Position numbers and translations under genes: made by a program
Source of the DNA: Acidimicrobiia bacterium
Lineage (GTDB): Bacteria; Actinomycetota; Acidimicrobiia; Spongiisociales; ZC4RG35
Direction of reading: 5' to 3'
Length of the DNA: 64,000 nucleotides
Assembly: GCA_036396655.1 (NCBI GenBank)
Contig: DASWKK010000098.1
Location: 14,592-78,591 of the forward strand
Notes under the pieces: model-generated
Seen by the model: the letters and a program-made list of their open reading frames with translations, nothing else
The model's database searches: none
Told to the model about the DNA's origin: nothing
Shown: positions 47,196 to 64,000 of the stretch, one piece after another
How the letters are laid out: every line of letters begins with the position of its first letter
Numbering within the stretch: position 1 is the stretch's first letter

Positions 47196-47219
47196 GACGT
47201 CGAGAGTACGTTGCCCGGT

Positions 47220-48268: not shown

Positions 48269-49297
48269 TCAGGTCAACCGCTTGCGGGCCTCGGTCTCCT
48301 CATCCACGATCTTGCCAGTCGGCTTGAACCCGTTGCGAAGATAGAACGGTCGCGGCGAGCCCTTGCCTTCGGTCCAACTGGTGAGCAAGGTCTCATCTCC
48401 CATCCGAAGGCACTCCTCGGCGATCAGTCCGAGAACTCGCCCCCCTATCCCCCGTCGCTGATGGAGACGATCTATCAAGAGTCGCCAAAGGTAGGGCTCC
48501 GCGTGATGGTCGGTTCTCAGGGCGAGCATCACGAAGCCAACCACTTCCCCGTCGGCGGACACCCCGCGCATCCAGGGCACCAGCGGAGCGCCGTCGACCA
48601 CCTCGGGGAAGAGTGCATCGGCATATGAGCCGGCCATCGGAGCCACAAACGCTTCCTGCGTCTTGTGGGTCCGCAGCTTGTACACCACCCGCTCGTTGCC
48701 GACGGTGACGTCGAACAGGCTCACTTCATCCGGGGGCCGGAGAGGTCGGTCCACCCAGGCCTGCCAGTCGGGTCGGGTCATACCGTAGATCCAGTCGTCG
48801 GAGACCTCGTCTCCCACCCAAAAGGACGACCTGGTGTGCCCTTCGAACAGCATCCCGCTCCGCTCCAACACCATGGCCGAGGCGATGTTGTCCGGGTGGA
48901 GCATGCCGAAGACACGTGTCACCCCCAGCCCGGCGAACAGATACTCGATCAGGGCGCCCAGCGCCTCGGTGGCATAGCCATTCCCCCAGAACTCCCTGGC
49001 CAGCGTGTACCCCACTTCAGCCGTGCGAGCCTGCCATGTGAGATGGAGGGCCAGATCGCCGTACACCTGACCGCTGTCGCCGTCGGCGACCACCGCCATC
49101 CACCATTGGTCGTCGGTGGGGCCCTCCATGGCGACCAACTCGGACACCACCTCCTCCGCCCTTTTCAGCGGGTAGGGAAGCTCCCAGTTCTGAAGCCGGG
49201 CCACCTCCGGGTCGTTGCGTCGCGCGGCCAAGCCGTCGGCGTCGGCCGTGGTGAAAGGGCGAATGATTAGCCTCTCGGTGCGGATCGGGGCGAACAT
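48269..49297 (-). CDS. tandem GNAT-domain N-acetyltransferase
   Basis: RimJ/RimL-like N-terminal domain (TERLIIRPFT). A second GNAT domain with LHQRRGIGGRVL. Confidence 0.85.
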   Translation of the reverse strand: MFAPIRTERLIIRPFTTADADGLAARRNDPEVARLQNWELPYPLKRAEEVVSELVAMEGPTDDQWWMAVVADGDSGQVYGDLALHLTWQARTAEVGYTLAREFWGNGYATEALGALIEYLFAGLGVTRVFGMLHPDNIASAMVLERSGMLFEGHTRSSFWVGDEVSDDWIYGMTRPDWQAWVDRPLRPPDEVSLFDVTVGNERVVYKLRTHKTQEAFVAPMAGSYADALFPEVVDGAPLVPWMRGVSADGEVVGFVMLALRTDHHAEPYLWRLLIDRLHQRRGIGGRVLGLIAEECLRMGDETLLTSWTEGKGSPRPFYLRNGFKPTGKIVDEETEARKRLT

Positions 49298-49394
49298 CCA
49301 CCCGATTCAACCAGCGGATGAGGCCGAAAACGTCCGCTATTTTCGCCGGACCAACTGGTCATGGGCAGCGGGTCGTCCACCTAGGGTTAATCCC

Positions 49395-50372
49395 ATGCGG
49401 GCATTCGCCGCCGCGACGCTGTTCATGGCCACCACCGCCTGTGTCACCGTGATGGTCGACGATTCGTCCTCGACCACCACTCCCGACTCTCCGACAACCA
49501 CCACGGCTCCGACGGGGTGGGTCGAGGTAGCACCGATGAGGGTCGCTCGCAGCGAGCATCCCGGAGTCGTTCTGGACGGTGAGGTGGTCGTGATTGGGGG
49601 TTTCATCGAAGAGGGAGTGGGACGGATCGGGGTGACCGACACCGTCGAGGCCTACTCCCCCGACACCGACACCTGGCGCGACCTGCCCAACCTCCCCGAG
49701 CCGATACATCACGGGATGGCAGCCGTGTTCGCCGAACGTCTCTTTGCCTTGGGCGGATACTCGTCGGGAGGAGACCCGGTCGACTCCATGTGGGAATTGG
49801 TCGGCGACGCCTGGATCGACCGTCCTCCGCTGCCAGGTGCGGTCGGCGCCGGAGCAGCGGTGGTCGTGGACGATTGGGTCTACGTGGTGGGCGGGAGCCC
49901 CGACGGTGGCTTCTACCGCTACCACCCGGAGAGCAATGCCTGGGCCGAGCTGCCCGGGCCGGCCGTGCAGAGAGAGCATCTGACGGCGGCTTCTCGGGAC
50001 GGCGAGGTGTGGGCGATCGCCGGTCGGTGGCAGGGCGAGATCTTCGACACCATCGAGATCTACAACTCCGAGTCTCAAACCTGGCGCTCGGGGCCGAACC
50101 TGAATGAAGCCCGCTCCGGGTTCGGAGCCGTGGCCATCGGCGAACGGATAGTCGTGGCGGGAGGCGAGCTGTTCTCGCCGGAAGCAGCGCTCACCTCCGT
50201 GGAAATGCTCGACGCCGACGGCGCTGCATGGGTGCTCATCGATCCGCTGCCCCACGGGCTGCACGGCAACCCGCTGGTCGGATTGGGTTCGGATCTGCTG
50301 CTGCCGGGCGGTTCGACCAGGGCCAGGGATGTGATCAACGACGGTCGCACCTACCGGCTGACCGGGGAGTGA
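49395..50372 (+). CDS. Kelch-repeat lipoprotein
   Basis: Lipobox LFMATTAC, a Ser/Thr/Pro linker, and repeated Kelch-like blades (VVIGG, LFALGG, VYVVGG, VWAIAG, IVVAGG). Confidence 0.8.
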   Translation: MRAFAAATLFMATTACVTVMVDDSSSTTTPDSPTTTTAPTGWVEVAPMRVARSEHPGVVLDGEVVVIGGFIEEGVGRIGVTDTVEAYSPDTDTWRDLPNLPEPIHHGMAAVFAERLFALGGYSSGGDPVDSMWELVGDAWIDRPPLPGAVGAGAAVVVDDWVYVVGGSPDGGFYRYHPESNAWAELPGPAVQREHLTAASRDGEVWAIAGRWQGEIFDTIEIYNSESQTWRSGPNLNEARSGFGAVAIGERIVVAGGELFSPEAALTSVEMLDADGAAWVLIDPLPHGLHGNPLVGLGSDLLLPGGSTRARDVINDGRTYRLTGE

Positions 50373-50430: not shown

Positions 50431-53400
50431 GTGGATTCGGGCGCACAGCCGAGCCCGTCCTCGTTGCGCGAGGAAGTCCTCGAGCGAATAGGCGAAACTT
50501 CGGAGCCGCTGGCCGCGTTGGCCCGCGCCTACCTTCATCGCATTCCCTGGGACGTGGCCCTCTCTCCCGACCTCGCATATCGAGAGGTAGTGGGACTGTT
50601 CGACTTCATCGAGAACCGCGTCGGCCCCGTTGCAGTGCGGGTTTTCAATCCCAGTGTCGCCATCCACGGCTATGAATCATCGGGCACGGTCGTCGAGATC
50701 CATGTCGACGACGGGCCCTTCCTGGTGGATTCGGTCACCGGCGAGCTTCATGCCCACGGGCTGGCGGTGGTGCGGGTGCTCCACCCTGTCATTGGGACAG
50801 TCCGGGACGCATCAGGTGCCCTGGTTTCGATTCAACCTGCCCGGGATGCAGCAACGAGAGAGTCGGTCCAGCACTACCTGCTCGACCGCACCCTCGACCC
50901 AGCCGACCATCTTTCCCTCGCGACACGTCTGGAGACCGTGCTCGGCGACGTGTTGCTCGCCGTACGTGACTTCCCGGCGATGATCGACGCCACCACTCGA
51001 ATGGCCGAGATGGCCCGGGCCGGTCGAGCCCACTATCCGGATATCGACGTCGAAGAGGCGGTGGCCTTTCTCGATTGGCTAGGCGACGAGAACTTCGTGT
51101 TTCTCGGCTACCGCGAGTACCGGATACTGACTCGACCCGACGGTCCGGTCGTGGAAACGGTCGCGGACTCGGGTCTCGGCATCCTCTCCGATCCCGCACA
51201 CTCCAGATCCTCCGAGCCAATCCCTCTTTCTTCGATGCCGCCGGAGCTTCGGCAGCGATACGAAGAGGGTGATCTGCTCACCATCACCAAGACCAATCGC
51301 CTCTCGACCGTGCATCGTCGGGCCAGGATGAACTACGTCGGGGTCCGGCTGGTTGGCCCCGAAGGTGAGACGGTGGGAGAAGCCCGGCTGCTAGGTCTGT
51401 TCACGTCCAAGGCCTATATGGAAAGCGTCTCGCGCATCCCCATTCTCCGCCACAAACTTGCCGAGATCATCTCCACAGGAGACCTCATCGAAGGCTCGCA
51501 TGATCACAAGGCCATCACAGCCTTACTCGAGAGCTTCCCCAAGGACGAGTTGTTCGGACTGCCGACTGAAGATCTCAGCAGTCTCCTGATGGGCTTGCTG
51601 GCCCTCGAAGAGCGGGCCAAGGTCCGGCTGTTCGTCCGGCGCGAGCTTCTCGACCGTGGGGTGCGGGTCCTGGTGGCGATGCCCCGGGAGCGCTACTCGG
51701 CGGAGCTCGCCGAGCGACTCCAGGATCTCTTCCTCGAACGTTTCGGAGGCTCCACGGTTGACCACCATCTCACCCTGGGCAAGAGCGACATAGCCCGACT
51801 CCATTTCGTGGTGTGGAATGCCAAGGGCAACATCCCCGACCCGGCATTCGAGGAGCTCGAAGCCGAGGTGATGGCACTCACCCGCTCCTGGGCTGAGCAT
51901 GTAGCAGGACAGTTGGATCTGCGGCACGATCCGGACGAAGCCAAGGCCATGGTTGGCCGCTGGGCGGCGCGGATGCCCGACTACTACAAGGCCTCGACTC
52001 CGCTGACCGTCGCCGCCGGAGACTTCGAGCGACTCGACGAGTTGATGGCAAGTGGGGCCCGATCTCTGGTTGGCCTTCAAAACGAAGATGCTGGACCCGA
52101 CATCCTGACCAGGGTCACCTTGTACGAGGTCCGCGGCAAGCGGCCGCTATCGGAGTTGACACCCGCCTTGGAGGACATGGGGATGCAGGTGGTCGAGGAG
52201 GTGTTCACCCGGCTGTCCGGCGATGAGAACTTGTTCATCCACGACTTCGGGGTCCTCGACGCCCAAGGGGAGCTGATCGACATCGAAACCGCCGGGGAGC
52301 GGATCGCACGCTGTCTGGAGGCGGTGTGGGCCGATCAAGCGGAAAGCGACTCCTTGAACCGGTTGGTGATGGTGGCCGGTCTCGATCACCATCAGGTAGG
52401 CATCCTGCGCGCCTACCACACCTACTGGCGGAGGGTCAGCTCCATCTTCACTGTGAACTACGTCAATGCCGCTCTGGTTGCGCATCCTGAGATAGCCGCC
52501 CGCCTGATCCGACTATTCGAGCTGAGATTCGATCCGGCCTTGGAGGGAGACGGACACGAGCAGCAGCGTATCGAGGTGCTCGAACGTCTCGACGCGGTTC
52601 CCTCACTCGACGAGGATCGCATCCTCAGGGGGTTCTTCCGCATGATCGAAGCCACCCTCCGAACCAACGCCTATCAACAGGACCGAGGGGCGCTGGCCAT
52701 CAAGCTGCGCTCAGCCGACATACCCGACATGCCCTCACCCAAGCCTTATGTCGAGGTGTTCGTGATCGGCGACGATGTGGAGGGAATCCATCTCCGCGCC
52801 GGTCCCCGGGCACGGGGAGGAATTCGGTGGTCAGAGCGGCGGGAGGACTACCGCACCGAGGTAGTTGGGTTGATGAAGGCGCAGATAACCAAGAACGCGA
52901 TCATCGTCCCCACCGGAGCCAAGGGCGGCTTCGTCCTGCGTCACACCCCCGAACCAGGAGCGATGAACGAAGCGGTGCGCTCCGCTTACGAGGTCTTCAT
53001 CAGGGGGCTCCTCGACATAACCGACAATCTGGTCGAAGGCGAGATCGTTCATCCCCGGAGTGTCCGGGTGCACGACGGCCCTGACCCCTATCTGGTGGTG
53101 GCCGCAGACAAGGGGACCGCCCGGTTCTCCGATCTCGCCAACCTGATCGCCGACGAATACGGGTTCTGGCTTGACGACGCTTTTGCCTCCGGCAGCGCCA
53201 CCGGGTACGACCACAAGGGTCTTGGCATCACCGCCCGGGGTGCTTGGAAGTCATTGGAGCGTCACTTTCTCACAGAGGGAATCGACCCTCACCGACACAA
53301 TTTCACCGCGGTGGGGATCGGCGACATGTCGGGTGATGTCTTCGGGAATGGCATGCTGGGCTCCGAGACCATCATGTTGGTGGCTGCGTTCGACCATCGC

Positions 53401-55188
53401 CATGTCTTCGTGGACCCCGACCCGGAGCCGGCGACCTCGTTTCAAGAGCGGAAGCGGATCTTCGATCTCCCGTCATCGAGCTGGGACGACTACGACCGGA
53501 GCCTCATCTCCGAAGGGGGAGGTGTGTTCGCCCGGTCGCTGAAGCAGATCAACCTGTCCGAGCCGGCGCGGATGGCGTTGGGCACCGAAGCCGGCGCCGT
53601 CACCCCGGCGGAGCTGATCCGGATCGTATTGAAGGCGCCGGTGGATCTGTTGTGGAACGGTGGAGTTGGCACGTACGTCAAGGCCACCGAGGAGACCCAC
53701 GAGCAGGTCGGGGACCGGAGTAATGACTCGGTTCGGGTCGACGGATCGGAAGTTCGCGCTCGGGTGGTAGTGGAAGGAGGGAACCTTGGCCTCACCCAGC
53801 GAGGTCGGGTGGAGTATTGCCAGACAGGAGGACGGATCAACACCGATTTCATCGACAACTCCGGTGGGGTCAACTGCTCGGATCGTGAGGTGAACCTGAA
53901 AATCCTCCTCCGTCTCGCCGAGCAGAGAGGTGAGATCGGGCGCAACGAGGCCGAGAAGTTGCGGGAGCGAGGCGCGGACAGCGTGGTGGAGGCGGTGCTG
54001 CTCGACAGCCTCGAGCAAACCCAACTCCTGGCGCGGGCGGAGCGCGCCTCGGCCGACTCAATGGATGCTTACGAACAGCTCATGGTGTCGCTCGAGCACG
54101 AAGGGATGCTGGTCCGTGACCTGGAATGGCTGCCCTCCACCCAGGGAATGACGGAACGGGCCCGGGCCGGCACCGGCCTCAGCGCACCGGAGTTGGCGGT
54201 GCTGGTGGCGTATGCCAAACGGAGTGTGGCCGATCAGGTGCTGGCATCTGATCTCCCCGACTCGCGCTCCATGCTCTCTGACCTGGCCAGCTACTTCCCC
54301 AACGAGATCAGCGAACGCTTCGGCGATCTGATCTGGGACCATCCGCTTCGTCGTGAGCTGATCTCGACCATCGTCGCCAAGGATGTGGTCGACTCCCAGG
54401 GCCCAACGTTCGTGCTCCGTCTGGTTCTGCGCAGCGGGGCAGCCCCCGCCGCAGTGGTCGCTGCCTATCGGGCCGCGCGCGATCTCGTGGGCGGCACAAT
54501 GCGACGACGGGAAATCGAGCAGTTGTTCGGCTCGGTCGATCATCGAGTGTGGAACGAGATGATGGACGCCAACGAGAGACTGGTCGGGGCGTTGACCCGC
54601 TGGCATCTCGGTCGCCTCCCCGGGAAACCTCTCGACGGCGTCGCCGATCTCGAGCACGAGATGGAGGAGTGGGGCTCGCCAGAGTGGCGTCAGGAGAGAG
54701 ACCAGCGAATCCAAGGTTTCGAAGCAGCCGGTGTCCCGACGGCCGTGGCCCGTCAGACGGTCTCCGCTTCCGACTTGTTGCATGGGCCCAACATCATCGA
54801 GGTTGCTCGCGCGTCCGGTCGCCCCCAGATCGATGTGGGCCGTGTTTTCCACCGAATCGGTCGTGTGCTCGGTCTCGACGACCTGGAGAAGGCGCTTTAC
54901 GAATTGCGGTCGGCAGACCCCTGGCAACGGTGGGCGCTCGAGACGATCGAGGACGACGCTCTGGCGGTCCGTCGCTCACTGGCGGAGCGAGTCCTAGGGG
55001 ACACCGGGCTGCCACCGGCCGACGAAGCCCTGGAACGGTTCCTTGCCGAGCGAGCCGACGCCGTAGCCAGGGTGGTCGAGCTGGTCCAATCCCTGGAGGC
55101 CGGAACCATCGGGGACACAGCTCCGCTGCTGGTGGTCATTCGTCAGATCCAGGCCCTGGCGAGCGACCATGACCGGACTGCAGAGTGA
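50431..55188 (+). CDS. large NAD-specific glutamate dehydrogenase (180-kDa class)
   Basis: 1585 aa. Catalytic block RGGIRWSERREDYRTEVVGLMKAQITKNAIIVPTGAKGGFV. Confidence 0.95.
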   Translation: MDSGAQPSPSSLREEVLERIGETSEPLAALARAYLHRIPWDVALSPDLAYREVVGLFDFIENRVGPVAVRVFNPSVAIHGYESSGTVVEIHVDDGPFLVDSVTGELHAHGLAVVRVLHPVIGTVRDASGALVSIQPARDAATRESVQHYLLDRTLDPADHLSLATRLETVLGDVLLAVRDFPAMIDATTRMAEMARAGRAHYPDIDVEEAVAFLDWLGDENFVFLGYREYRILTRPDGPVVETVADSGLGILSDPAHSRSSEPIPLSSMPPELRQRYEEGDLLTITKTNRLSTVHRRARMNYVGVRLVGPEGETVGEARLLGLFTSKAYMESVSRIPILRHKLAEIISTGDLIEGSHDHKAITALLESFPKDELFGLPTEDLSSLLMGLLALEERAKVRLFVRRELLDRGVRVLVAMPRERYSAELAERLQDLFLERFGGSTVDHHLTLGKSDIARLHFVVWNAKGNIPDPAFEELEAEVMALTRSWAEHVAGQLDLRHDPDEAKAMVGRWAARMPDYYKASTPLTVAAGDFERLDELMASGARSLVGLQNEDAGPDILTRVTLYEVRGKRPLSELTPALEDMGMQVVEEVFTRLSGDENLFIHDFGVLDAQGELIDIETAGERIARCLEAVWADQAESDSLNRLVMVAGLDHHQVGILRAYHTYWRRVSSIFTVNYVNAALVAHPEIAARLIRLFELRFDPALEGDGHEQQRIEVLERLDAVPSLDEDRILRGFFRMIEATLRTNAYQQDRGALAIKLRSADIPDMPSPKPYVEVFVIGDDVEGIHLRAGPRARGGIRWSERREDYRTEVVGLMKAQITKNAIIVPTGAKGGFVLRHTPEPGAMNEAVRSAYEVFIRGLLDITDNLVEGEIVHPRSVRVHDGPDPYLVVAADKGTARFSDLANLIADEYGFWLDDAFASGSATGYDHKGLGITARGAWKSLERHFLTEGIDPHRHNFTAVGIGDMSGDVFGNGMLGSETIMLVAAFDHRHVFVDPDPEPATSFQERKRIFDLPSSSWDDYDRSLISEGGGVFARSLKQINLSEPARMALGTEAGAVTPAELIRIVLKAPVDLLWNGGVGTYVKATEETHEQVGDRSNDSVRVDGSEVRARVVVEGGNLGLTQRGRVEYCQTGGRINTDFIDNSGGVNCSDREVNLKILLRLAEQRGEIGRNEAEKLRERGADSVVEAVLLDSLEQTQLLARAERASADSMDAYEQLMVSLEHEGMLVRDLEWLPSTQGMTERARAGTGLSAPELAVLVAYAKRSVADQVLASDLPDSRSMLSDLASYFPNEISERFGDLIWDHPLRRELISTIVAKDVVDSQGPTFVLRLVLRSGAAPAAVVAAYRAARDLVGGTMRRREIEQLFGSVDHRVWNEMMDANERLVGALTRWHLGRLPGKPLDGVADLEHEMEEWGSPEWRQERDQRIQGFEAAGVPTAVARQTVSASDLLHGPNIIEVARASGRPQIDVGRVFHRIGRVLGLDDLEKALYELRSADPWQRWALETIEDDALAVRRSLAERVLGDTGLPPADEALERFLAERADAVARVVELVQSLEAGTIGDTAPLLVVIRQIQALASDHDRTAE

Positions 55189-55238: not shown

Positions 55239-56519
55239 TCAGTGCCGGGCGGCGGGCAGGGCCAGGCGGAAGTAGCCGAGATCGCCTTGGCGCCGGTAGT
55301 CGAGACTGCCTCGCATCAGTAGGGCCAGCTGGCGGGAGATGGCAAGACCGATCCCAACCGATCCGGGCAAGCCGGGATTGTCAGCTATCCGGTAGTAGGG
55401 CTCGAAGATCCTCTCCCTTTCGATGTTGGCCAAGACCGGGCCATCGTCGGCAACGTCCACATACACCCGGCCGTCGTCGCTGGTGACGCGAACGGTCACG
55501 GTCGAGCCGCCGTAGCGCTCGGCGTTGGTGAGCAGGTTGCGTAGGATCTGTCGGATTCGCGTCGGGTCGCCGATCGCCCAAATCGGGTCGGCTTCGGACT
55601 CGACGGTGACGTCCGCGGTGAACGAGCCTCCGGCTTGCAACGTCTTGACAAGCTGAGCGGCGACGTCGAAGCGAATGTTGGCGACTTCGAGCTGACCCAT
55701 ATCGGCCCTCGCCGCGACCAACAAGTCCTCCACGAGGTCGGCGACTTCCTGGGAGTACTGGACAATCGACGAGATCATCAATGCGCGGTCGTCGTCATTC
55801 AGAGTCCGGTCATCCTCGATGATGCGAGCGAACCCCAGAATCGCAGTCAGAGGTGTCCGGATCTCGTGACTGACCGAGGCAAGAAACCGGTTCTTGGCCT
55901 CCATCAGCTCCTGCATGCGGCGCTCCTCGTTCCGGTGACCGGTCACATCGAAGACGGTGAACACGACTCGCGAGAAGTCGGGCTCACCATCGATCAGTGG
56001 TGCCGACAAGATCGACTCGGCGTCGTAGATCTTCCCGTTGGCCGTCGCTGCGGTGTATGAAGAATGGGCTTCGGGCTCTCGATTCCAGACGGCATCGAGC
56101 TGATTGAGCCATCCGCCCTCGGAGCCCTCGTTGACGATCCGGGGGTCGATTGGTCCGATCAACGACTCCAAAGGCAATCCGACCGCGATCACCGCTGCCG
56201 GATTGGCAGCCACGATTCTGATCATCGGGACGATTTCCCGGATCGCTTCGATGTCGTCGCCCAAGTGCTCCCTCAGACTGGTCACTCCTTGGTCCCGGAG
56301 ACCTCCCATCCAGTCTTCGAGCGCCGAGTAATCCTGTTCCATGATGGGCACAGGCGAGATGCGGAAGAGATTCTCGAAGCTCGACCAGCCTCGCATTGCG
56401 TCGATCGATTCGAGGCCGGCCTCATCCCATTTCAGATAACGCTGATTTACCGCCTCGACGAGACGGTCCCACGATGCTTGATCGGGTGATCCGTCGTCGG
56501 TGAGAGTGAGACTGGCCAT
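55239..56519 (-). CDS. cytoplasmic sensor histidine kinase (PAS-like N-terminus)
   Basis: H-box SHEIRTPLTAILGF, N-box LLTNAERYG, G-box GSVGIGLAISRQLA. No TM helices and no adjacent response regulator. Confidence 0.85.
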   Translation of the reverse strand: MASLTLTDDGSPDQASWDRLVEAVNQRYLKWDEAGLESIDAMRGWSSFENLFRISPVPIMEQDYSALEDWMGGLRDQGVTSLREHLGDDIEAIREIVPMIRIVAANPAAVIAVGLPLESLIGPIDPRIVNEGSEGGWLNQLDAVWNREPEAHSSYTAATANGKIYDAESILSAPLIDGEPDFSRVVFTVFDVTGHRNEERRMQELMEAKNRFLASVSHEIRTPLTAILGFARIIEDDRTLNDDDRALMISSIVQYSQEVADLVEDLLVAARADMGQLEVANIRFDVAAQLVKTLQAGGSFTADVTVESEADPIWAIGDPTRIRQILRNLLTNAERYGGSTVTVRVTSDDGRVYVDVADDGPVLANIERERIFEPYYRIADNPGLPGSVGIGLAISRQLALLMRGSLDYRRQGDLGYFRLALPAARH

Positions 56520-56697
56520 CTCGGCCTCGAGTCGGGGATGGAGCCTCTTCTGTCTCGAGCTCACTTTCACTCGAAAGGGACCGGCAACAGGGGCGGCTGT
56601 GCAGATGGAGGCATGACCTGGTATCGGCAGAAACGGCTCTCTTGTTGAGTGGGGCAGCCCGGCCCCTCTTCCTGTCACAGGAAGGAAGGCAATCGCC

Positions 56698-59181
56698 TCA
56701 CTCGTCCCCTTCGGGCTCTGGCTTGATCACCGGCTGCATCTCGGTGGTGGTTGGGAACGACCGGTGCCAACCGGAGCCCTCCACCACCCTCCTGGTGAGT
56801 CGACGCCATGCCTCCGGCTCTGTCGGAGGATGCTCGCGGAGAAGCTCCGGGACCACTTTGGCCCATCCCACCGCCCGAAGGGCAAAGATCATCACCGTGC
56901 CGGTGACCGCCACGATCCCCACCGCAGCGAGCAGGACTACGGTCCTGGGCAAGTCGAGTGCGAAGAAGTCCCGCAGTGGCGGGCTCGCCATCACCACCAC
57001 CAAGCTCCCGGCCATAGTGGCGATCAGGCCCTTCTTCCATGGGACCAGTGGCCGACTGACGATGCCCAGGGCGAAGAGCCCGATAGCGGCGAGGATGAGG
57101 GTTGCGGTAGTGCGGGACTCGCCGATCGATGATCTTTCGAGGTCGGCAAGCCAATACCCGGCAAAGGTTGCAAACGTTGCCACCAACCCGGTCGGTGCTG
57201 CGAATTTGAGAACCCGAAGCACGAACCCCGATCTGGTCCGGCGGCGGGAAGGGGCAAGGGCGAGGAAGAAAGCCGGGATGCCAATGGTGAGACTCCCGAC
57301 CAGGGTCAGATGGCGGGGGAGGAACGGAAACGGCAGGGTGGAGCCGACGATTGCCAAGGAGAGGCCAAGGGCATAGACAGTGCTGGTGATGAAGAGGTTG
57401 GCAACCCTTTCGATGTTTGAGGTGACCCTTCGCCCCTCCCCGACGATTCCGGGGAGGCTGGCGAAACGACCGTCGATGAGAACCAGCTGGGCCACGGCGC
57501 GCGACGCTGGCGCCCCACCACCGATGGCGATCCCGATGTCCGAGACCTTGAGGGCGAGGACGTCGTTTACACCGTCCCCGGTCATCGCCACGACGTGACC
57601 TCTGGCCTGCATGGCGCGCACCATGGCACTCTTCTGGTGGGGCGCCACCCGGCCGAATACGTTGCTTCGCTCCATGATCGCGGCCAGTTGGTCGAGGTTC
57701 TTGGGGAGGCGACGCGCATCCACGACCTCGTCGGCCCCATCGACGCCCACCTCTCTGGCCACCGCCCCGACTGTCTCTGGGTGGTCTCCCGAGATCACCT
57801 TGACCCGGATCCCTTGGTCGGCGAAGTAGCGGAGCGTCTCGGCAGCATCGGACCGCACCTGGTCGGAGAGAACCAGGATGGCCACCGGCGCCAGATCTGG
57901 CGGGAGTTGCCCGTCGCTCAGCGGTGTCTCGCCCCTGCCCAGCAGGAGGACCCGATTGCCACCTGCGGAGACGCCGGAGGCGACGTCCATGGCTCTTCCG
58001 TCCCTGGGGGCGACGATGTCTGGGGCCCCGATGACCCAGGTGCCGTCACCGAAGAAGGTGACTCCGCTCCATTTGCGCGCCGATGAGAAGGGGACCGCAG
58101 TTTGCACACCCCAACCGGGGCTCTCGGGGAAAGCAGAGGCGATCGCAGTCAAAGTGGCGTTCGGATGCGGCTCGGCTGCGGCGATGGCCGCCAACGCCGG
58201 GAGCGGGTCCTGCTCGGTGAGGAGAATCACCTCTTCGACCGTGAGCCGTCCTTCGGTCAAGGTCCCGGTCTTGTCGAAGCAAACGGTGTCGACCCGGGCC
58301 AGCCCTTCGATCGCAGGAAGCTCCTGGACCAGGACGTTGCGTTTTCCCAACCTGATCACCCCAACCGCGAAGGCAATCGAAGCGAGCAAGACCAGGCCCT
58401 GGGGGATCATTGCCACCCCGGCCGCCACCGCACCACCGAGACCTTCGAGGAAGGTGCCCCCACCCCGGATGGAGCTCCACACCAGAAGGGCGCCCATCGG
58501 CACCACAGCCCAGCTGACCACCCCGAGGATCCAGTCGATGCCCTCGCGGAGCTCGGATCGCACCAGAGTGAATCGTTTGGCGGCGTGAGCGAGCCGGGCG
58601 GCATACGAGTCGTTGCCCACCCGGGTGGCCCGGTAGCGCCCGGAGCCGGCAGCCACGAAGCTTCCCGACAGACAGTGGTCATCCGCACTCTTGAGCACCG
58701 GATCCGCCTCTCCGGTGAGCAGCGACTCGTCGATCTCCAATCCGCGAGAGGTGACCACCACGCCGTCAACAGCGAGTTGATCGCCCGACCGGAGCTCGAT
58801 CAGATCGTCGACGACGATCTGATCGACCTGCTGTTCGGAGACTGTCCCCGATCGCATCACCCGCACCCGGGGCGAATTGAGGAGCTCCAGCCGATCCAAG
58901 GTCCGCTTCGCCCGCAGTTCCTGGATCGTCCCGATGGCGGAGTTGGTCAGAAGGACGATCCCGAAAAGAGCGTCCCGGGGCTCACGCAAGACGAGGAGAA
59001 CGACGATGACCAGCGCACCGAGAAGGATGTTGAATCGAGTGACGACGTTGGCACGGATGATCTCTCCCGTGGTCCTGCTCGGGCTCTCGGCCACCTCGTT
59101 GACCAACCCGGCCGCGATCCTCTGGCGAACCTCGGCGGGGGTGAGTCCTTCTTCGGGAGTGGCTAGCTCGGTGATCGTCAT
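56698..59181 (-). CDS. cation-transporting P-type ATPase
   Basis: CFDKTGTLTEG phosphorylation site, TGEADPV, and the MTGDGVNDVLALK hinge. Confidence 0.9.
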   Translation of the reverse strand: MTITELATPEEGLTPAEVRQRIAAGLVNEVAESPSRTTGEIIRANVVTRFNILLGALVIVVLLVLREPRDALFGIVLLTNSAIGTIQELRAKRTLDRLELLNSPRVRVMRSGTVSEQQVDQIVVDDLIELRSGDQLAVDGVVVTSRGLEIDESLLTGEADPVLKSADDHCLSGSFVAAGSGRYRATRVGNDSYAARLAHAAKRFTLVRSELREGIDWILGVVSWAVVPMGALLVWSSIRGGGTFLEGLGGAVAAGVAMIPQGLVLLASIAFAVGVIRLGKRNVLVQELPAIEGLARVDTVCFDKTGTLTEGRLTVEEVILLTEQDPLPALAAIAAAEPHPNATLTAIASAFPESPGWGVQTAVPFSSARKWSGVTFFGDGTWVIGAPDIVAPRDGRAMDVASGVSAGGNRVLLLGRGETPLSDGQLPPDLAPVAILVLSDQVRSDAAETLRYFADQGIRVKVISGDHPETVGAVAREVGVDGADEVVDARRLPKNLDQLAAIMERSNVFGRVAPHQKSAMVRAMQARGHVVAMTGDGVNDVLALKVSDIGIAIGGGAPASRAVAQLVLIDGRFASLPGIVGEGRRVTSNIERVANLFITSTVYALGLSLAIVGSTLPFPFLPRHLTLVGSLTIGIPAFFLALAPSRRRTRSGFVLRVLKFAAPTGLVATFATFAGYWLADLERSSIGESRTTATLILAAIGLFALGIVSRPLVPWKKGLIATMAGSLVVVMASPPLRDFFALDLPRTVVLLAAVGIVAVTGTVMIFALRAVGWAKVVPELLREHPPTEPEAWRRLTRRVVEGSGWHRSFPTTTEMQPVIKPEPEGDE

Positions 59182-59277
59182 CCCGATTCAGCTTACGGTC
59201 GCGGCGGCGATGAGAGACGGTGGGGTCCCAGCCGATAGATACGACGTGGGCCCGATGCCGTCCGGTAGCTTTAGCCG

Positions 59278-59430
59278 GTGAATTCTGAGCCCATAGTCCC
59301 GGTCCCGCCCCCACCCCCCGAACGGAACCGAGTCCTCCGGGGCTGTCTCATCGCCCTCGCCATCATCGGAGGTCTGGTGATCCTCGTCGGCGGCATTTGT
59401 GTCTTCCTCGTGATCAACTCGGGCCTGTGA
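59278..59430 (+). CDS. 50-codon ORF: Pro-rich N-terminus plus one TM helix
   Basis: VNSEPIVPVPPPPPERNRVLRGCLIALAIIGGLVILVGGICVFLVINSGL. GC3 is very high. Its TGA overlaps the GTG of the next gene (GTGA at 59427-59430). Below the ORF-track cut-off. No obvious SD. Confidence 0.4.
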   Translation: MNSEPIVPVPPPPPERNRVLRGCLIALAIIGGLVILVGGICVFLVINSGL

Positions 59431-60242
59431 TCCCGCTCCTGTTCCATCTCGGCCCCTTTGCGGTGGCCACCCACGACTTCTTTGTGGTCCTCGGTGTGGC
59501 CACCGCGATATTGGTGCTCTGGCTCAGGGCCAGGGGGCGGCCCCGCGACCCCGATATGCCGGCTCTGGTCGGCGGGGGTCTGCTCGCCGGAGCCGTCTTC
59601 GCCAAACTGGGCACGGGCTGGCAGTACTTCGCCCTCGCCGACGATCCCAACCTGTTCGGGCTGTGGCTGTACGGGGGCCAAAGCGTTCTCGGAGGTCTCG
59701 CCGGGGCCTATCTCGGCGTGGTCCTGACCAAGCGGCTCATCGGGTATCAGGGCTCCACCGGATACCGGTTTGCCCCGGCCGTGGCGGCAGGGCTGGCCGT
59801 CGGGCGGGTGGGGTGCTTTCTCACCGAGCAGATCGGGTCCTCGACCACGATGCCCTGGGGCATCACCGTGTCCGCGGAGACAGCAGCCGGGATGGCCTAC
59901 TGCCCGAGTTGCGCTGCTGGGCTCCCGATGCATCCTTCGTTCCTCTACGAGATCATCTTCCACGTCGCCGCATTCGTGGTGCTCACACGCCGCGCGGACC
60001 GCTTCGGTGAGCCGGGAGATGGTTTCAAGCTCTACCTGTTGGGTTATGCGCTGTTTCGATTCGGCGTCGAGTTCGTGCGGGACAATCCGGAGATGGCACT
60101 CGGGTTGACCGGATCGCAGGTCTTCCTGTTGGCCACGGTTCCCGTCGGGCTGATCTACTACCTGCGGCGAAGAGCGGATGGTGGCCGGTACCCGAGCACT
60201 AGGCCCCTAAAGGTTCCCGTTCTGGTAGAGCAAGAGAGATGA
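59427..60242 (+). CDS. lgt: Lgt-family (prolipoprotein diacylglyceryl transferase-like) membrane protein, divergent
   Basis: LGPFAVATHDFFVVLG, GGQSVLGGLAG, GRVGCFLTEQ, HPSFLYE and LGYALFRFGVEFVR follow the Lgt block order. TTG 59397 is the alternative start. Confidence 0.8.
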   Translation: MIPLLFHLGPFAVATHDFFVVLGVATAILVLWLRARGRPRDPDMPALVGGGLLAGAVFAKLGTGWQYFALADDPNLFGLWLYGGQSVLGGLAGAYLGVVLTKRLIGYQGSTGYRFAPAVAAGLAVGRVGCFLTEQIGSSTTMPWGITVSAETAAGMAYCPSCAAGLPMHPSFLYEIIFHVAAFVVLTRRADRFGEPGDGFKLYLLGYALFRFGVEFVRDNPEMALGLTGSQVFLLATVPVGLIYYLRRRADGGRYPSTRPLKVPVLVEQER

Positions 60243-61807
60243 CCGGCGGCATGCCCGTCAGGGAAGACCGCATCCTCCGCTATGTCAACGCGTTCTGCCC
60301 GCATTGCCATGAGGAGGAGCCACAGCGCTCGCTTCACGAGGTACAACGTCTCAGCGGCTATCTATCCGAAGCGGAGGGGCAGGTGTGGCTGGTCCGGGGC
60401 TGTCCCCGACACGGCAAGGTGGTGACCCATTATGACGAAGACCCCGAGATCCTTCAGTATCTCGAGCAGTGGACCGCGCCGACCAAGGTCCACGTTCCCG
60501 ACACGCCGGGCAACTACGCCCCGGTGCCGTCGGCCTACCTGGGTGGCTTGGGAGAGATGCAGACCCAGCACACCTGCATCCTGCTCGAGGACATCAACGA
60601 GAGCTGCAACCTCAATTGTCCGACGTGTTATGCCGGCTCCAGCCCGCAGTTGAGTGGTGTGGCCACCGTCGAGGAGATCACGGCCAACATCGACCAGAGG
60701 CTAGCCAGAGAGGGAGGACGTATCGATGTGCTCATGCTCAGCGGTGGGGAGCCGACCATCCATCCCGACTTCGCGACCATCCTCCAAGCCGCTCTCGAGC
60801 GCGACGTGGTTCGCATCCTGGTCAACACCAACGGAGTCACTCTGTCTCGTGACGACGAGCTCTTGGATCTGTTTCGCTCGCATCGGGACCGGGTCGAGAT
60901 CTACCTCCAGTTCGACGGGTTTCGCAAGGAGACCTATCTCCACCACCGCGCCGCCGACCTGCGCACCATCAAAGAACGGGCGCTCCACCGGCTCAGTGAC
61001 GCCGGTGTCTTCACCACGTTGACCATGACCGCCGCTCTCGGGGTGAACGACGACGAGATTGGGCAGGTGGTGCTCACGGCATTGGAGACTCCCTACGTGG
61101 GAGGCGTCTCCATCCAGCCTCAGTTCGGTTCTGGTAGGTCGGGACCGATCAACCCACTCGAACGGCTCACCCATACCGGAGTGCTCAAACGTCTCGGGCC
61201 ACAGACTGGTGGCGTGGTCGACTGGATGGACTTGACCGCACTCCCGTGCTCTCACCCTCATTGCGCCAGCGTCGGGTACATGATCCGATCCGACAATGGG
61301 GAGTGGAGATCGCTGGCCAGGGTGATCGGGCACGATCGACTGAAACAGCATCTCGGCCTGATCAGCAATCGGATCAACGACACCGAGCTCACGACGGAGC
61401 TCCAGGAGCTGGTCAAGGCCTCATTGCTCGGTCTGCTCAGCGAACAGACCTCGCTCAGCCGCCCCACGGTCCTCGACCTGTTTCGCGACGTGTGCGAAGC
61501 CTGCGACCTCGGGTTGAGCACGCTGCTCAAAATGGCCTCCGGATCCAAGCGGCGGCACGCAATGATGCGGGAGATGGTGGGGACGCGGATCAAACGAATC
61601 ACGGTCAAGCCGTTCATGGACATGAACACCATGCTCGAGGAGCGGCTGTTGCAATGTTGTGTCCATGTCGGGACCAGGTCGGTCGACCAGGACCAGTGCG
61701 CTCCGTTCTGTGCGGTGCAGGCGTGGCGGCCACTGGGCGAGATGAAGATCGCCGAAGCGACCCGCAGAACCGGGAACCGCTCCATCCCGCTGGTGATCGC
61801 ACCATGA
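60239..61807 (+). CDS. radical SAM enzyme with N-terminal CxxC...CxxH ribbon and Cys-rich C-terminal domain (Tes/GDGT-MAS-like layout)
   Basis: ATGA overlap with lgt. CPHC...CPRHG. The radical SAM triad CNLNCPTC. GGEPT. YLQFDG. Further Cys groups PCSHPHC, CEAC and QCCVHVG...QCAPFC. Confidence 0.9.
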   Translation: MTGGMPVREDRILRYVNAFCPHCHEEEPQRSLHEVQRLSGYLSEAEGQVWLVRGCPRHGKVVTHYDEDPEILQYLEQWTAPTKVHVPDTPGNYAPVPSAYLGGLGEMQTQHTCILLEDINESCNLNCPTCYAGSSPQLSGVATVEEITANIDQRLAREGGRIDVLMLSGGEPTIHPDFATILQAALERDVVRILVNTNGVTLSRDDELLDLFRSHRDRVEIYLQFDGFRKETYLHHRAADLRTIKERALHRLSDAGVFTTLTMTAALGVNDDEIGQVVLTALETPYVGGVSIQPQFGSGRSGPINPLERLTHTGVLKRLGPQTGGVVDWMDLTALPCSHPHCASVGYMIRSDNGEWRSLARVIGHDRLKQHLGLISNRINDTELTTELQELVKASLLGLLSEQTSLSRPTVLDLFRDVCEACDLGLSTLLKMASGSKRRHAMMREMVGTRIKRITVKPFMDMNTMLEERLLQCCVHVGTRSVDQDQCAPFCAVQAWRPLGEMKIAEATRRTGNRSIPLVIAP

Positions 61808-62109
61808 GCGGGAGAACATCGCCCCCATCGGCGTTCGATCCGGTGACACCTCCCAGACCGGAATTGTTCGACCCGTTCCGGCTCTGTGTGTACACCACCG
61901 TGGCGGTGCTCGCCTGGTTGCTTACCCCGGCCGCCGTCGTAGCCCTGTTCAGTGGGGTGGCGCTGGTGGCCTACCTCCGTGCCCGGCGAGCCGGCCTGGT
62001 CAAGTCGAAGTGCAAGCTCGGGGACACCCGGCTGGTGATGGCATATCTGACGGTGGCGTTCTTGGCTGGCGTCTACTTCTCGGTGCAGCGGCTGACCACG
62101 ATGTTTTGA
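61804..62109 (+). CDS. small polytopic membrane protein (101 aa)
   Basis: ATGA overlap with the radical SAM gene. Two or three TM helices (VYTTVAVLAWLLTPAAVVALFSGVALVAYL, LVMAYLTVAFLAGVYF). Confidence 0.6.
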   Translation: MSGRTSPPSAFDPVTPPRPELFDPFRLCVYTTVAVLAWLLTPAAVVALFSGVALVAYLRARRAGLVKSKCKLGDTRLVMAYLTVAFLAGVYFSVQRLTTMF

Positions 62110-62145
62110 TGCTCGGCGGCGATTGGGATTGGCTCGTCGCCTCCG

Positions 62146-62151
62146 TATATT
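62146..62151 (+). promoter_or_regulatory. -10-like TATATT, 9 nt before ATG 62161
   Basis: A rare AT-rich hexamer in the 51-nt gap. Confidence 0.2.
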
Positions 62152-62160
62152 TCGCTCGCG

Positions 62161-64000
62161 ATGCAGACAATTCTGTTCACCGACATCGAGTCGAGCACCC
62201 GTTTGTGGGAGGAGCAACCCGGAGAGATGACGGTGGCGCTGGCTCGACACGATTCCATCCTCACCGAAGCGGTGGAACACGGCCACGGCCAGGTGGTCAA
62301 GACCACCGGCGACGGCATGATCGCGGTATTCGACTCGGTGGCCGACGCGATCGTCACCGCGATTCGCGCCCAGAAGGCCCTCCACGCCCAAGAATGGGGG
62401 CCGACCGGCTCGCTTCGGGTCCGCATGGGAGTCCACAGCGGGGACACCGAGAGCCGCGATGGTGATTACTTCGGGCCGGCGATGAACCGCACCGCCCGGA
62501 TCATGGCGGCTGGCCACGGGGGCCAGGTGCTCCTGTCTGGAACCGCCGCTCGTCTCGCCGAGGTCAGCCTGCCAAAAGGCACCGTCCTGCGGGACCTGGG
62601 GACCCATCGGCTCAAAGATCTGACGCTGCCCGAGCATCTCTATCAATTGGTCCATGATGATCTTGAATCCGACTTCCCGGCACCGGGCACTCTCGATGCC
62701 AGACCGCACAACCTCCCCCTGCAGACCACCGAGTTCCTCGGGCGGAGCAACGAGATGGCATCTATCCGGGTCATGCTGGAATCTCCGAGCACCCGACTGT
62801 TGACGATCGCCGGGCCTGGTGGAGCCGGCAAGACACGTCTCGGTCTCCAGGTGGCCGCCGAGCAGATCGATCGTTTCCCCGATGGAGTGTTCTTTGTCGA
62901 CCTATCGGCGGAGCGTGATCCCGACGCCGCCTTCGAGACGATCGTCCGCACCCTCCACCTCCCCATGTCGGGAGGCGGTGAACCGCTGGGAATGCTCAAG
63001 ACCAGATTGCGGGACCTCCAAATGCTGCTCCTGCTGGACAATCTCGAACAGGTGACCGCCGCGGCGGTCGGTCTCTCAGAACTTCTTCAGAGCGCACCAG
63101 GGCTGAAGATCATGGTCACCAGTCGAGAGACATTGCGGGTCCGTGCCGAACACGTCTTCCCGGTTCCCCCTCTCTCGCTTCCCCACCCCAAGGATGATGC
63201 AGCTTCGGTGGCAGAGTCGGAGTCGGTGCAGCTGTTCACAGAGCGCGCCCGAGTTGTCCGACCCGGGTTCGCCATCACCGAAGAGAACGCCGCCGTGATC
63301 GCCGAAATCTGCCTTCGTCTCGATGGGCTCCCCCTTGCCATCGAGCTGGCCGCGGCTCGGCTCAAGGTGTTCACGCCATCCGATCTCCTGGACCGGCTCC
63401 GGGAGAGGCTCGACGTCCTCGGAGCGGGCGGCCGGGACCTGCCCGACAGGCAACGCACCCTGTGGGGGGCGATCGGATGGAGCTTTGAGCTGCTCGATCG
63501 GGACGAGCGCGAGATTTTCGAGCTGATGTCCGTGTTCTCCTCGGCCGACCTGCCGGCCATTGAGGCGGTATCGGCCTCGGCGCTCGATGTCGCCGACGTA
63601 GTGGACGCCCTCTCCTCTCTGGTGGACAAGAGCCTGATCAGAAGTGATGACCGCGGCCCCTCCCAACGCTTCTCGATGCTTTTGATGATCAAGGAGTACG
63701 CCGAGACACGGCTCGCCGAGTCCTCACAACGCGATCTGGCTGTCCGACGAGCCCACGCTCTTCACTTCTCGGGCTTCGCCCAACGTCTGCAAGAGCGGCT
63801 GCGTGGCGTCGACCACGATGCTGCTCTCGACGAATTGGCGTCGGAGATCGGCAACCTGAGGACCGCCTGGCGCTTCTGGGTCGATCAGGGTGACCTGGAG
63901 CAGCTGTTCCAGCTCATCGACGGTCTCTGGGCGTTGCACGAGGCCAGAGGCTGGTATCACGCTGCAATCGAGCTCGCCACTGACACTCTCGCAGTCCTGG
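62161..64000 (+). CDS. class III adenylate/guanylate cyclase domain fused to an NB-ARC-type ATPase and helical/TPR region (partial; continues past the window)
   Basis: My own translation gives no stop from ATG 62161 to the window end. ILFTDIESSTRLWEE...VVKTTGDGMIAVF...VRMGVHSGD...DYFGPAMNRTARIM cyclase blocks. Walker A IAGPGGAGKTRLG. LLLLDNLEQV. Not in the ORF track because it is open-ended. Confidence 0.85.
   Translation, partial: MQTILFTDIESSTRLWEEQPGEMTVALARHDSILTEAVEHGHGQVVKTTGDGMIAVFDSVADAIVTAIRAQKALHAQEWGPTGSLRVRMGVHSGDTESRDGDYFGPAMNRTARIMAAGHGGQVLLSGTAARLAEVSLPKGTVLRDLGTHRLKDLTLPEHLYQLVHDDLESDFPAPGTLDARPHNLPLQTTEFLGRSNEMASIRVMLESPSTRLLTIAGPGGAGKTRLGLQVAAEQIDRFPDGVFFVDLSAERDPDAAFETIVRTLHLPMSGGGEPLGMLKTRLRDLQMLLLLDNLEQVTAAAVGLSELLQSAPGLKIMVTSRETLRVRAEHVFPVPPLSLPHPKDDAASVAESESVQLFTERARVVRPGFAITEENAAVIAEICLRLDGLPLAIELAAARLKVFTPSDLLDRLRERLDVLGAGGRDLPDRQRTLWGAIGWSFELLDRDEREIFELMSVFSSADLPAIEAVSASALDVADVVDALSSLVDKSLIRSDDRGPSQRFSMLLMIKEYAETRLAESSQRDLAVRRAHALHFSGFAQRLQERLRGVDHDAALDELASEIGNLRTAWRFWVDQGDLEQLFQLIDGLWALHEARGWYHAAIELATDTLAVL

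Follow-up and report, generated by a model that had tools for sequence, protein, structure and literature searches.

The stretch of DNA analysed here, referred to as the window, comprises 64,000 nucleotides of contig DASWKK010000098.1 from an Acidimicrobiia bacterium (assembly GCA_036396655.1). Its open reading frame (ORF) at 60239-61807 on the plus strand, the translation of which was checked, encodes a protein of 522 residues of the radical S-adenosylmethionine (SAM) type. In a preliminary description of the window, this protein was proposed to have the cysteine layout of archaeal tetraether synthase (Tes, GDGT-MAS), which joins two lipid tails to make membrane-spanning glycerol dialkyl glycerol tetraethers (GDGTs), as well as to be encoded in an operon with an Lgt paralogue. 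The operon could be confirmed. The start of the radical SAM gene overlaps the stop of an upstream gene, which encodes a membrane protein matching the LGT family, by 4 bp (ATGA), and its own stop overlaps the start of a gene for a small membrane protein in the same manner (Table 1). The mechanically called ORF of the Lgt-like gene starts at TTG 59397; the GTG at 59427 is preferred, based on the family alignment and the orthologue at locus L001. The downstream neighbour, from ~62161, is an unrelated cyclase/NB-ARC regulator and the upstream neighbour is a P-type ATPase gene which is transcribed divergently. Because of the two stop/start overlaps and the nature of these neighbours, the operon therefore spans 59427..62109. 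Promoter and terminator scans of 59000-62600 returned nothing exceeding the shuffled expectation, and no canonical second lgt was found in the 64-kb window.

Table 1. Genes of the operon and features of the radical SAM enzyme (positions in the window).
Feature	Position	Strand	Properties
Lgt-like membrane protein	59427..60242	+	~271 residues; Pfam LGT E 1.1e-30; GC content at third codon positions (GC3) 0.80
Radical SAM enzyme, GDGT-MAS/Tes fold	60239..61807	+	522 residues; predicted catalytic component
Rubredoxin-like N-terminal ribbon C20-x2-C23...C55-x2-H58	60296..60412	+	Pfam Zn_ribbon_HMPTM, residues 13-65
Residues 96-113, in place of the GDGT-MAS N-terminal [4Fe-4S] motif	60524..60577	+	without Cys ligands
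Radical SAM cluster motif C123-x3-C127-x2-C130	60605..60628	+	Pfam Radical_SAM, residues 122-278
C-terminal cysteine-rich domain, residues 337-491	61247..61711	+	from alignment and invariance
Small membrane protein with two hydrophobic segments	61804..62109	+	101 residues; GC3 0.81; two invariant Cys

Pfam searches with the radical SAM protein returned Radical_SAM (E 2.7e-20) and Zn_ribbon_HMPTM (E 2.1e-08), so that these features far exceed what chance would produce. Its best sequence match in the Protein Data Bank (PDB) was GDGT-MAS (7TOL, E 6.4e-33), aligned over residues 35-494, and the second was the thioether-forming SkfB, which matched the core only (residues 118-278). An AlphaFold2 model was built on 59 homologues, with a mean predicted local distance difference test (pLDDT) value of 70.5 and a predicted template modelling score (pTM) of 0.76. 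When this predicted model was compared with Foldseek, 7TOM and 7TOL were matched with template modelling (TM) scores of 0.72 and 0.75, respectively, across ~540 columns (E 1.5e-27), while all other radical SAM structures had query-normalised TM scores of <=0.35 and matched the barrel only. GDGT-MAS has four domains (rubredoxin, N-terminal cluster domain, radical SAM barrel, and C-terminal cluster domain), and this architecture is reflected in the full-length structural match. The similarity to GDGT-MAS reaches well past the core barrel in both sequence and predicted fold, so that the refuting outcome named in the preliminary description, similarity confined to the barrel, did not occur, and membership of the window enzyme in the Tes/GDGT-MAS superfamily is established.

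The identity with archaeal Tes could not be upheld by profile comparison. On the NCBIfam Tes equivalog model (NF045702) the window enzyme scored 142.7 bits, which does not pass the curated cutoff of 450, and the best-scoring curated family was TrsS (NF045646), with 193.5 bits over residues 35-493 and a cutoff of 490 that was likewise not passed. Relatives were sought among 1.84 billion representatives clustered at 50% identity, and 20 full-length superfamily representatives were scored on both models. Their Tes-model scores ranged from 147 to 361 bits; outside the window clade the ranges were 194-361 bits (Tes) and 233-356 bits (TrsS). Since the lowest Tes- and TrsS-model scores among the representatives are found for the window family, it is the most divergent branch of the Tes superfamily, and the window enzyme is not a Tes orthologue. 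MJ0619 (GDGT-MAS/Tes) and the window enzyme have the whole-chain fold, the C-terminal FMD...CC.H...PFC region, and a non-cysteine residue at the position of the labile ligand in common, but their sequence identity is only 21-26%. The window enzyme also comes from a bacterium and is always accompanied by an Lgt-like protein, for which archaea have no equivalent. TrsS, a radical SAM (seleno)protein, is a member of this superfamily too; the window gene has no in-frame TGA or selenocysteine. No SPASM profile was matched in Pfam at E <=0.01, and the NCBIfam models of SPASM families reached barrel residues ~110-280 only. The cysteine spacing, CX4C...CX2C...CC...CX3C, is unlike the SPASM seven-cysteine pattern CX9-15GX4C...CX2CX5CX3C. 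The Pfam scan also gave no match to a domain for recognition of peptides that are ribosomally synthesized and modified post-translationally (RiPPs).

The published ligands of GDGT-MAS (PMC9433317) were mapped on a MAFFT alignment of 61 sequences and 54 representatives were tabulated by column; invariance within the window family was judged over 59 members. GDGT-MAS has a rubredoxin-like mononuclear Fe site formed by C9-x2-C12...C33-x2-H36 (PMC9433317). This site, which had been proposed in the preliminary description, is retained in the window family: C33/H36 correspond to C55/H58, C20/C23 lie upstream and all four residues are invariant. The radical SAM triad is retained as well (C123/C127/C130 for C98/C102/C105). 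The ligands of the N-terminal auxiliary [4Fe-4S] cluster are gone, as C73/C77/C80/H83 of GDGT-MAS are replaced by V96/G102/G105/Q108. These C..C..C..H columns are kept by most superfamily representatives and are lost in the window clade and in the representatives P0121, P0122, and P0126; residues 96-113 of the window enzyme carry the clade-invariant motif Y100-L-x-G-L-x-E-x-Q-T-Q-H-T-C113.

In the C-terminal half, C338/C455/C456/C470 of GDGT-MAS correspond to C342/C473/C474/C491, which are invariant candidate cluster cysteines, and C438 is replaced by V456. Met439, the labile cluster ligand, and Tyr459 are fully conserved in 1000 archaeal Tes homologues (PMC9433317). In the window family these residues are K457 and V477, both invariant. 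A lysine at position 457 combined with a small aliphatic residue at 477 defines one bacterial subgroup and H/Y at these positions another, whereas MJ0619 has M/Y. Compared with GDGT-MAS, the window family has the extra invariant residues C113, C337, H339, H341, C419, C422, and C487. C337 is common among bacterial relatives and is a serine in MJ0619; among the 54 representatives, C487 is restricted to the window family and P0121, and C422 to the window family and P0122. Because of the lost N-terminal ligands and the new invariant cysteines, the cofactor set of the window family is predicted to differ from that of Tes, with one cluster gone, and the eight invariant C-terminal cysteines could bind one or two clusters. 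In a rough neighbour-joining tree, which was calculated without support values, the window family groups with P0121, P0122, and P0126, and the sister group contains P0150, P0175, and P0260. P0199, which is also Lgt-linked, is placed outside this sister group at the unresolved base of the tree. The enzymes with H/Y make up a clade of their own.

All motifs quoted in the preliminary description were found in the translation, both in the N-terminal part and the core (FCPHCHEE at 19, GCPRHG at 54, CNLNCPTC at 123, GGEPT at 169, YLQFDG at 222) and in the C-terminal part (PCSHPHC at 336, VCEACD at 418, ITVKPFMD at 454, LLQCCVHVG at 470, QCAPFCA at 486). The protein has 15 cysteines in total, and the C-terminal half contains eight (337, 342, 419, 422, 473, 474, 487, and 491), not the "at least nine" that had been counted. 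With respect to superfamily and fold the description was right; the claim that the enzyme has "exactly this plan" of Tes fails on the N-terminal [4Fe-4S] ligands and on residues 438, 439, and 459, and the claim of rarity fails on the distribution of the family. The most valuable part of the description is its remark on the Lgt paralogue.

A word-indexed search with the window enzyme gave 3382 proteins at E <=1e-5. Identities among the top 120 are 66-99%, and their sources include Acidimicrobiia, Herpetosiphonaceae, and Gemmatimonadota. When one genome was scanned for each GTDB species, at least 577 loci encoding the enzyme were found, so that the family is present in at least 577 species genomes, from Actinomycetota, Chloroflexota, Gemmatimonadota, and Acidobacteriota. 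Its occurrence in actinobacteria, many of them cultured, is therefore not new, contrary to what the preliminary description had expected. For locus analysis 80 loci, 62-97% identical to the window enzyme, were kept. Their cultured carriers are Nocardia, Nonomuraea, Mycolicibacterium, Microbispora, Planobispora, Janibacter, and Longivirga, and their metagenome-assembled genomes (MAGs) belong to Chloroflexota, Gemmatimonadota, and Acidobacteriota (Blastocatellia, Thermoanaerobaculia). The nearest public locus (97% identical) is from an Acidimicrobiia MAG, in agreement with the actinobacterium-like genome noted before. In a second search, with a Mycolicibacterium orthologue as query, the matches listed include M. 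fortuitum, M. goodii, M. wolinskyi, M. mageritense, M. peregrinum, and M. septicum, among many others, and all of them are annotated as 'radical SAM protein' only. Zeng et al. counted 456 bacterial Tes homologues at E <1e-50 versus MA_1486 (PMC8941075). The window family is probably absent from that set, since its match to MJ0619 reaches only E 6e-33 even in the small PDB database. The Lgt-linked group is not mentioned in a 2026 review of lipid-modifying radical SAM enzymes.

Conservation of the neighbouring genes was determined by tblastn of the window neighbours against the 80 loci, where upstream DNA was regarded as informative if at least 1.5 kb of sequence was available. The Lgt-like gene was found upstream of the radical SAM gene and on the same strand in 74 of 74 informative loci, which represent four phyla; the five loci without an Lgt-like match are contigs that break off. 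The gene for the small two-cysteine protein was present in 62 of the 74 loci with sufficient downstream DNA. The 12 loci from which it is missing are mostly from Mycobacterium and Mycolicibacterium, and in the two of these that were inspected (L044 and L069) a convergent gene lies directly 3' of the radical SAM gene. In 66 sequences of the small protein, one cysteine is part of a DPxRLC site ahead of the first hydrophobic segment and the other of an S-x-C-x-L-R-D site in a basic loop. The protein matched no Pfam or NCBIfam family, and homologues are also encoded in the sister lineages L081 and L082. No further conserved neighbours were found across the 80 loci; of the other genes near the window cassette, those for the P-type ATPase, the histidine kinase, and the glutamate dehydrogenase have counterparts in only 1-3 loci and were rejected as conserved neighbours.

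Many loci contain a fourth small membrane-protein gene, between the Lgt-like and radical SAM genes, which is absent from the window. In actinomycetes its product combines a proline-rich N-terminus with a conserved C-terminal GW.LVT.C..G.CT..NP.LY motif (39 loci). Examples are found at L036:5627-5995, L052:5600-5998, L077:5417-6004, and L093:5366-6004, where the proline-rich N-terminus is long and no curated family is matched. In Acidobacteriota and Chloroflexota the fourth gene encodes an N-terminal 'FAYLREHSGRYSLAALREQL' domain, and in distant lineages a zinc ribbon. Two other candidates were discarded. An apparent N-terminal extension of the radical SAM enzyme by 140 codons in Nocardia and Mycolicibacterium, where the frame is open to the stop of the Lgt-like gene, translates into Arg/Gly-rich out-of-frame junk, and the gap carries the separate gene for the proline-rich membrane protein in a different frame. 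'Cluster 7' of the ORF clustering, considered as a universal fourth gene, was a mixture of shadow ORFs and unrelated accessory membrane proteins. The radical SAM enzyme is the predicted catalytic subunit of a conserved three-gene membrane module, which has four genes in many taxa.

The pairing with an LGT gene persists in distant lineages. In P0126 (41% identity) the order is altered to radical SAM enzyme, LGT, zinc-ribbon membrane protein, and an 86-residue two-cysteine protein. At the P0122 locus (49%) a homologous small protein is encoded 3' of the radical SAM gene (hidden Markov model E 3e-17), and an LGT gene adjoins each of P0150, P0175, P0199, and P0260, which are ~27-33% identical in the multiple alignment. 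Because the pairing is found in these lineages, including one with altered gene order, the linkage between the radical SAM enzyme and the Lgt-like protein is old. P0236, P0258, P0185, and P0228 have no LGT neighbour. P0185 and P0228 have an adjacent methyltransferase gene, while P0236 and P0258, which are of the H/Y type, lie within clusters of FabA, ketosynthase, acyl carrier protein (ACP), and ketoreductase genes with additional radical SAM genes. Since even P0236 and P0258, which have no LGT neighbour, sit in FabA/ketosynthase/ACP clusters, lipid chemistry is the common theme of the Tes superfamily.

The clusters of P0236 and P0258 (L087:248-3239 and L088:1360-8148) encode a FabA/ApeI-like dehydratase, a ketosynthase, an ACP, ketoreductases, a PEMT/ICMT-like methyltransferase, and up to three further radical SAM enzymes. 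With H457/Y477, their enzymes are nearer to archaeal Tes at those two positions. The clusters look like dedicated clusters for lipid-tail biosynthesis and coupling, and they may be better candidates for membrane-spanning lipid synthesis than the window family. At the P0199 locus (L086:829-5408) the radical SAM gene and an Lgt-like gene with a cysteine in place of N146 (E. coli Lgt numbering, as used below) are followed by genes for an ArsP/SaoE-like efflux permease and for a YedE/TsuA-like transporter of sulfur or selenium, to which an isoprenylcysteine-methyltransferase-like domain is fused. P0199 has the highest TrsS-model score (353 bits) among the representatives with visible context. Because of the two transporters, which the window lacks, the locus hints that some Lgt-linked systems are tied to sulfur/selenium handling.

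Residues of the Lgt-like partner were compared with E. coli Lgt by alignment to 5AZB and tabulated over 72 family members. The changes Y26H and N146C are invariant, and R73A and H103L occur in 71 and 69 of the 72 members, respectively. G142, R143, G145, E151, G154, Y235, R239, E243, and R246 are retained. In E. coli Lgt, Y26, H103, R143, N146, G154, and R239 are absolutely required (PMC13251419). Three of these six (Y26, H103, and N146) are replaced in 72 of 72 members, and R143, G154, and R239 are kept. The partner scores below all NCBIfam Lgt cutoffs (71 bits versus 118.9 for TIGR00544). Seven LGT proteins linked to a radical SAM enzyme were examined, distant ones included, and all have N146C together with R143, Y235, R239, E243, and G154; position 246 is always basic, with arginine in all but L094, which has lysine. 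The partner is genetically tied to the radical SAM enzyme and not to genes of lipoprotein processing. In addition, residues ~160-175 of the window protein (59850-59930), in the predicted head domain, contain a C-P-x-C motif (YCPSCAAGLPMHP), which 60-90% of the family members keep and E. coli Lgt lacks.

The two invariant changes are known from mycobacteria. MSMEG_5408, the second Lgt homologue of M. smegmatis, has exactly Y26H and N146C, as has the window partner, and is presumed to have low Lgt activity (PMC13251419); it was also speculated to have a different lipid preference (PMC11741404). However, since the Lgt of Leptospira has N146C yet keeps partial function (PMC13251419), N146C alone is no proof of lost Lgt activity. 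In M. goodii, the cassette and its downstream genes are arranged in the order LGT, a 212-residue protein, radical SAM enzyme, an 86-residue protein, DUF1942 protein, ppx, DUF501, divIC, eno, SLT, and FTR1. MSMEG_5418 is termed iron permease and is ten genes away from MSMEG_5408, as is FTR1 from LGT in M. goodii. Based on this gene order, and not on sequence, we infer that MSMEG_5408 is the Lgt-like gene of the cassette, that the radical SAM enzyme is encoded by ~MSMEG_5410 and that the cassette extends to ~5411. On the 5' side of the M. goodii cassette (L093:982-4558), a P-type ATPase, an ArsR/SmtB-type regulator, and a ZIP-like membrane protein are encoded. MSMEG_5406, near the inferred M. 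smegmatis cassette, was reported to be ~9-fold down on zinc starvation (PMC7174638). A link of the cassette to metal homeostasis is possible, with the limit that an adjacent ATPase gene is found in only 3 of the 80 loci.

Based on the homology, the fold, the kept and lost metal ligands, and the gene linkage, a substrate, a newly formed bond, and roles for the partners can be proposed. GDGT-MAS acts on archaetidylglycerol, an analogue of phosphatidylglycerol, and holds phospholipids inside a hydrophobic channel. The lipid radical is trapped by a sulfide of its C-terminal cluster, which results in an intermediate between lipid carbon and cluster sulfur (PMC9433317). By analogy, the window module would combine a Tes-type lipid-tail radical enzyme with a partner of the phosphatidylglycerol-binding type, a reading that is given an even chance of being correct. 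The radical SAM cluster would cleave SAM, and the 5'-deoxyadenosyl radical would take a hydrogen from an unactivated carbon of a lipid tail in the hydrophobic pocket. The substrate radical would be captured by the C-terminal auxiliary [4Fe-4S] cluster, with Lys457 at its non-cysteine position, and the C-S intermediate would resolve into a new C-C or C-S bond. Because GDGT-MAS uses archaetidylglycerol and the partner keeps the headgroup-binding arginines, the substrate would probably be a diacylglycerolipid of the phosphatidylglycerol type. The Lgt-like partner may present this lipid, or may transfer its diacylglyceryl unit to a thiol acceptor.

Several observations weigh against this combination of a lipid-tail radical enzyme and a lipid-binding partner. 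Because of the lost N-terminal cluster and the replacement of Met439 and Tyr459, the reaction may differ substantially from that of Tes. Residues 373-434, where the second lipid pocket is expected, have pLDDT values <50 in the predicted model, and the small protein is not encoded at 12 of the 74 loci. In E. coli Lgt, the catalytic cavity is oriented towards the outer leaflet, and a SAM-dependent enzyme must be cytoplasmic. Therefore, a direct hand-over between the radical SAM enzyme and the Lgt-like protein would be topologically awkward. This difficulty and the poorly modelled second pocket apply to all lipid models. Moreover, no reports are known of membrane-spanning or tail-linked lipids in the well-studied Mycolicibacterium species bearing the cassette.

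The preferred pairing of the two enzymes can be worked out further, in a version that must be called tentative and has a low probability, namely that the cassette makes an undescribed class of envelope molecules. The Tes-like enzyme would functionalise the methyl end of an acyl chain via cluster sulfur, giving either a lipid thiolated at its tail or a thioether between tail and cysteine. In a next step, a diacylglyceryl unit would be attached to this thiol, or else to the small two-cysteine protein, by the N146C Lgt-like enzyme, by ancestry a thiol:phosphatidylglycerol diacylglyceryl transferase. Many aerobic soil bacteria would thus contain a thioether lipid that is branched or spans the membrane, or a lipoprotein with two anchors. 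If true, this would explain the long-puzzling 'second Lgt' of fast-growing mycobacteria.

Alternatively, as proposed in the preliminary description, the window enzyme could be the bacterial functional equivalent of Tes and join two acyl chains tail to tail, resulting in lipids of the diabolic-acid type or in tetraester/tetraether lipids. The overall fold and the C-terminal cluster cysteines are as in GDGT-MAS, and bacterial Tes homologues were proposed by Zeng et al. as synthases of branched GDGTs (PMC8941075). The cassette is also present in Blastocatellia and Thermoanaerobaculia MAGs of the Acidobacteriota, a phylum with producers of iso-diabolic acid in which no membrane-spanning lipid synthase (Mss) and, in most species, no stringent Tes homologue was found (PMC13159169). 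Nevertheless, this equivalence is considered unlikely. The window enzyme belongs to the branch that scores lowest on the Tes model among the representatives (143 bits, cutoff 450), one of three [4Fe-4S] clusters and the archaeal-invariant Met439/Tyr459 are lost, and nothing in archaeal Tes biology corresponds to the obligatory Lgt-like partner. The carriers are mostly Nocardia, Nonomuraea, Mycolicibacterium, Microbispora, Chloroflexota, and Gemmatimonadota, none of which is known for membrane-spanning lipids. A reaction of the kind in question is carried out by Mss of Thermotoga and Thermoanaerobacter (Sahonero-Canavesi 2022), a radical SAM enzyme which couples bacterial acyl tails by C-C bonds. 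By its description Mss is set apart from the window enzyme, as it is only remotely related to Tes, derives from anaerobes and has no reported Lgt-like partner (PMC13159169).

The module could also modify protein. In that case the Lgt-like enzyme would diacylglycerylate a cysteine of the small two-cysteine protein or of some lipoproteins, and the radical SAM enzyme would then cross-link or alter the anchor, or make a thioether to a protein cysteine. Lgt chemistry is the S-alkylation of a cysteine thiol beside a membrane helix, and the catalytic cavity is for the most part preserved in the partner. Translation of the small membrane protein, with its two invariant cysteines, is coupled to that of the radical SAM gene in the window, and the protein occurs in 62 of 74 loci as well as in sister lineages, and the second PDB match is to the thioether-forming SkfB, although over the core only. 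Furthermore, residual lipoprotein labelling in an MSMEG_3222 mutant of M. smegmatis was ascribed to MSMEG_5408 (PMC11741404). However, neither cysteine of the small protein is in a lipobox-like context, 12 loci have the Lgt-like and radical SAM genes without the small protein, and the radical SAM enzyme matches no RiPP-recognition or SPASM domain. The conserved two-segment membrane protein also resembles a subunit more than a substrate, and modification of protein, though a serious rival, is regarded as quite improbable. The name '7,8-dihydro-6-hydroxymethylpterin dimethyltransferase', which is used by JGI for several homologues and in the name of the Pfam N-terminal domain, would make the enzyme a pterin radical SAM methyltransferase (class D methylase), but the similarity is one of names and this is highly implausible, as the annotation stems from MJ0619, for which Lloyd et al. 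could not reproduce the activity and which was shown to be GDGT-MAS with a long hydrophobic lipid pocket (PMC9433317), and the conserved neighbours are membrane proteins and no pterin or folate genes.

Several other genes were observed in the window. The P-type ATPase gene that divergently adjoins the cassette lies at 56698-59181; such an adjacent ATPase gene is found in only 3 of the 80 loci. Further upstream, a 1585-residue ORF lies at 50431-55188. By visual inspection, its translation resembles the large, NAD-specific kind of glutamate dehydrogenase found in actinobacteria. The next gene, which is on the opposite strand, encodes a HisKA/HATPase_c histidine kinase (55239-56678). A 385-residue Kelch-repeat beta-propeller protein, which is uncommon in bacteria, is encoded next to the glutamate dehydrogenase gene at 49215-50372. 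On the minus strand at 45684-48125, an ATP-dependent DNA ligase is encoded beside a LigD primase-polymerase domain protein, which is the split arrangement of the non-homologous end-joining ligase D. A signal-transduction ATPase regulator of 1285 residues with BTAD/AAA_16/TPR/HTH domains is present at 40471-44328, and the adenylate/guanylate cyclase and NB-ARC regulator at 62161-64000 continues past the end of the window.

What is new is the Lgt-linked context of a widespread branch of the Tes superfamily with a distinct layout of its metal sites. The question of what bacterial Tes homologues do was raised by both papers that discovered Tes, and it bears on the biological source of lipid palaeoclimate proxies. 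A large bacterial branch of these enzymes, which was probably missed by published homology thresholds, is now defined, and it is locked to an Lgt paralogue whose role in mycobacteria is puzzling. Since the cassette is present in the tractable fast growers M. goodii and M. fortuitum and, as judged from gene order, in M. smegmatis, it is directly testable. The cassette points to a modification of membrane lipids that is as yet uncharacterised and occurs in many soil bacteria, fast-growing mycobacteria among them, and if the lipid role is true, this would represent a new radical lipid chemistry and a role for an Lgt-family enzyme outside lipoproteins.

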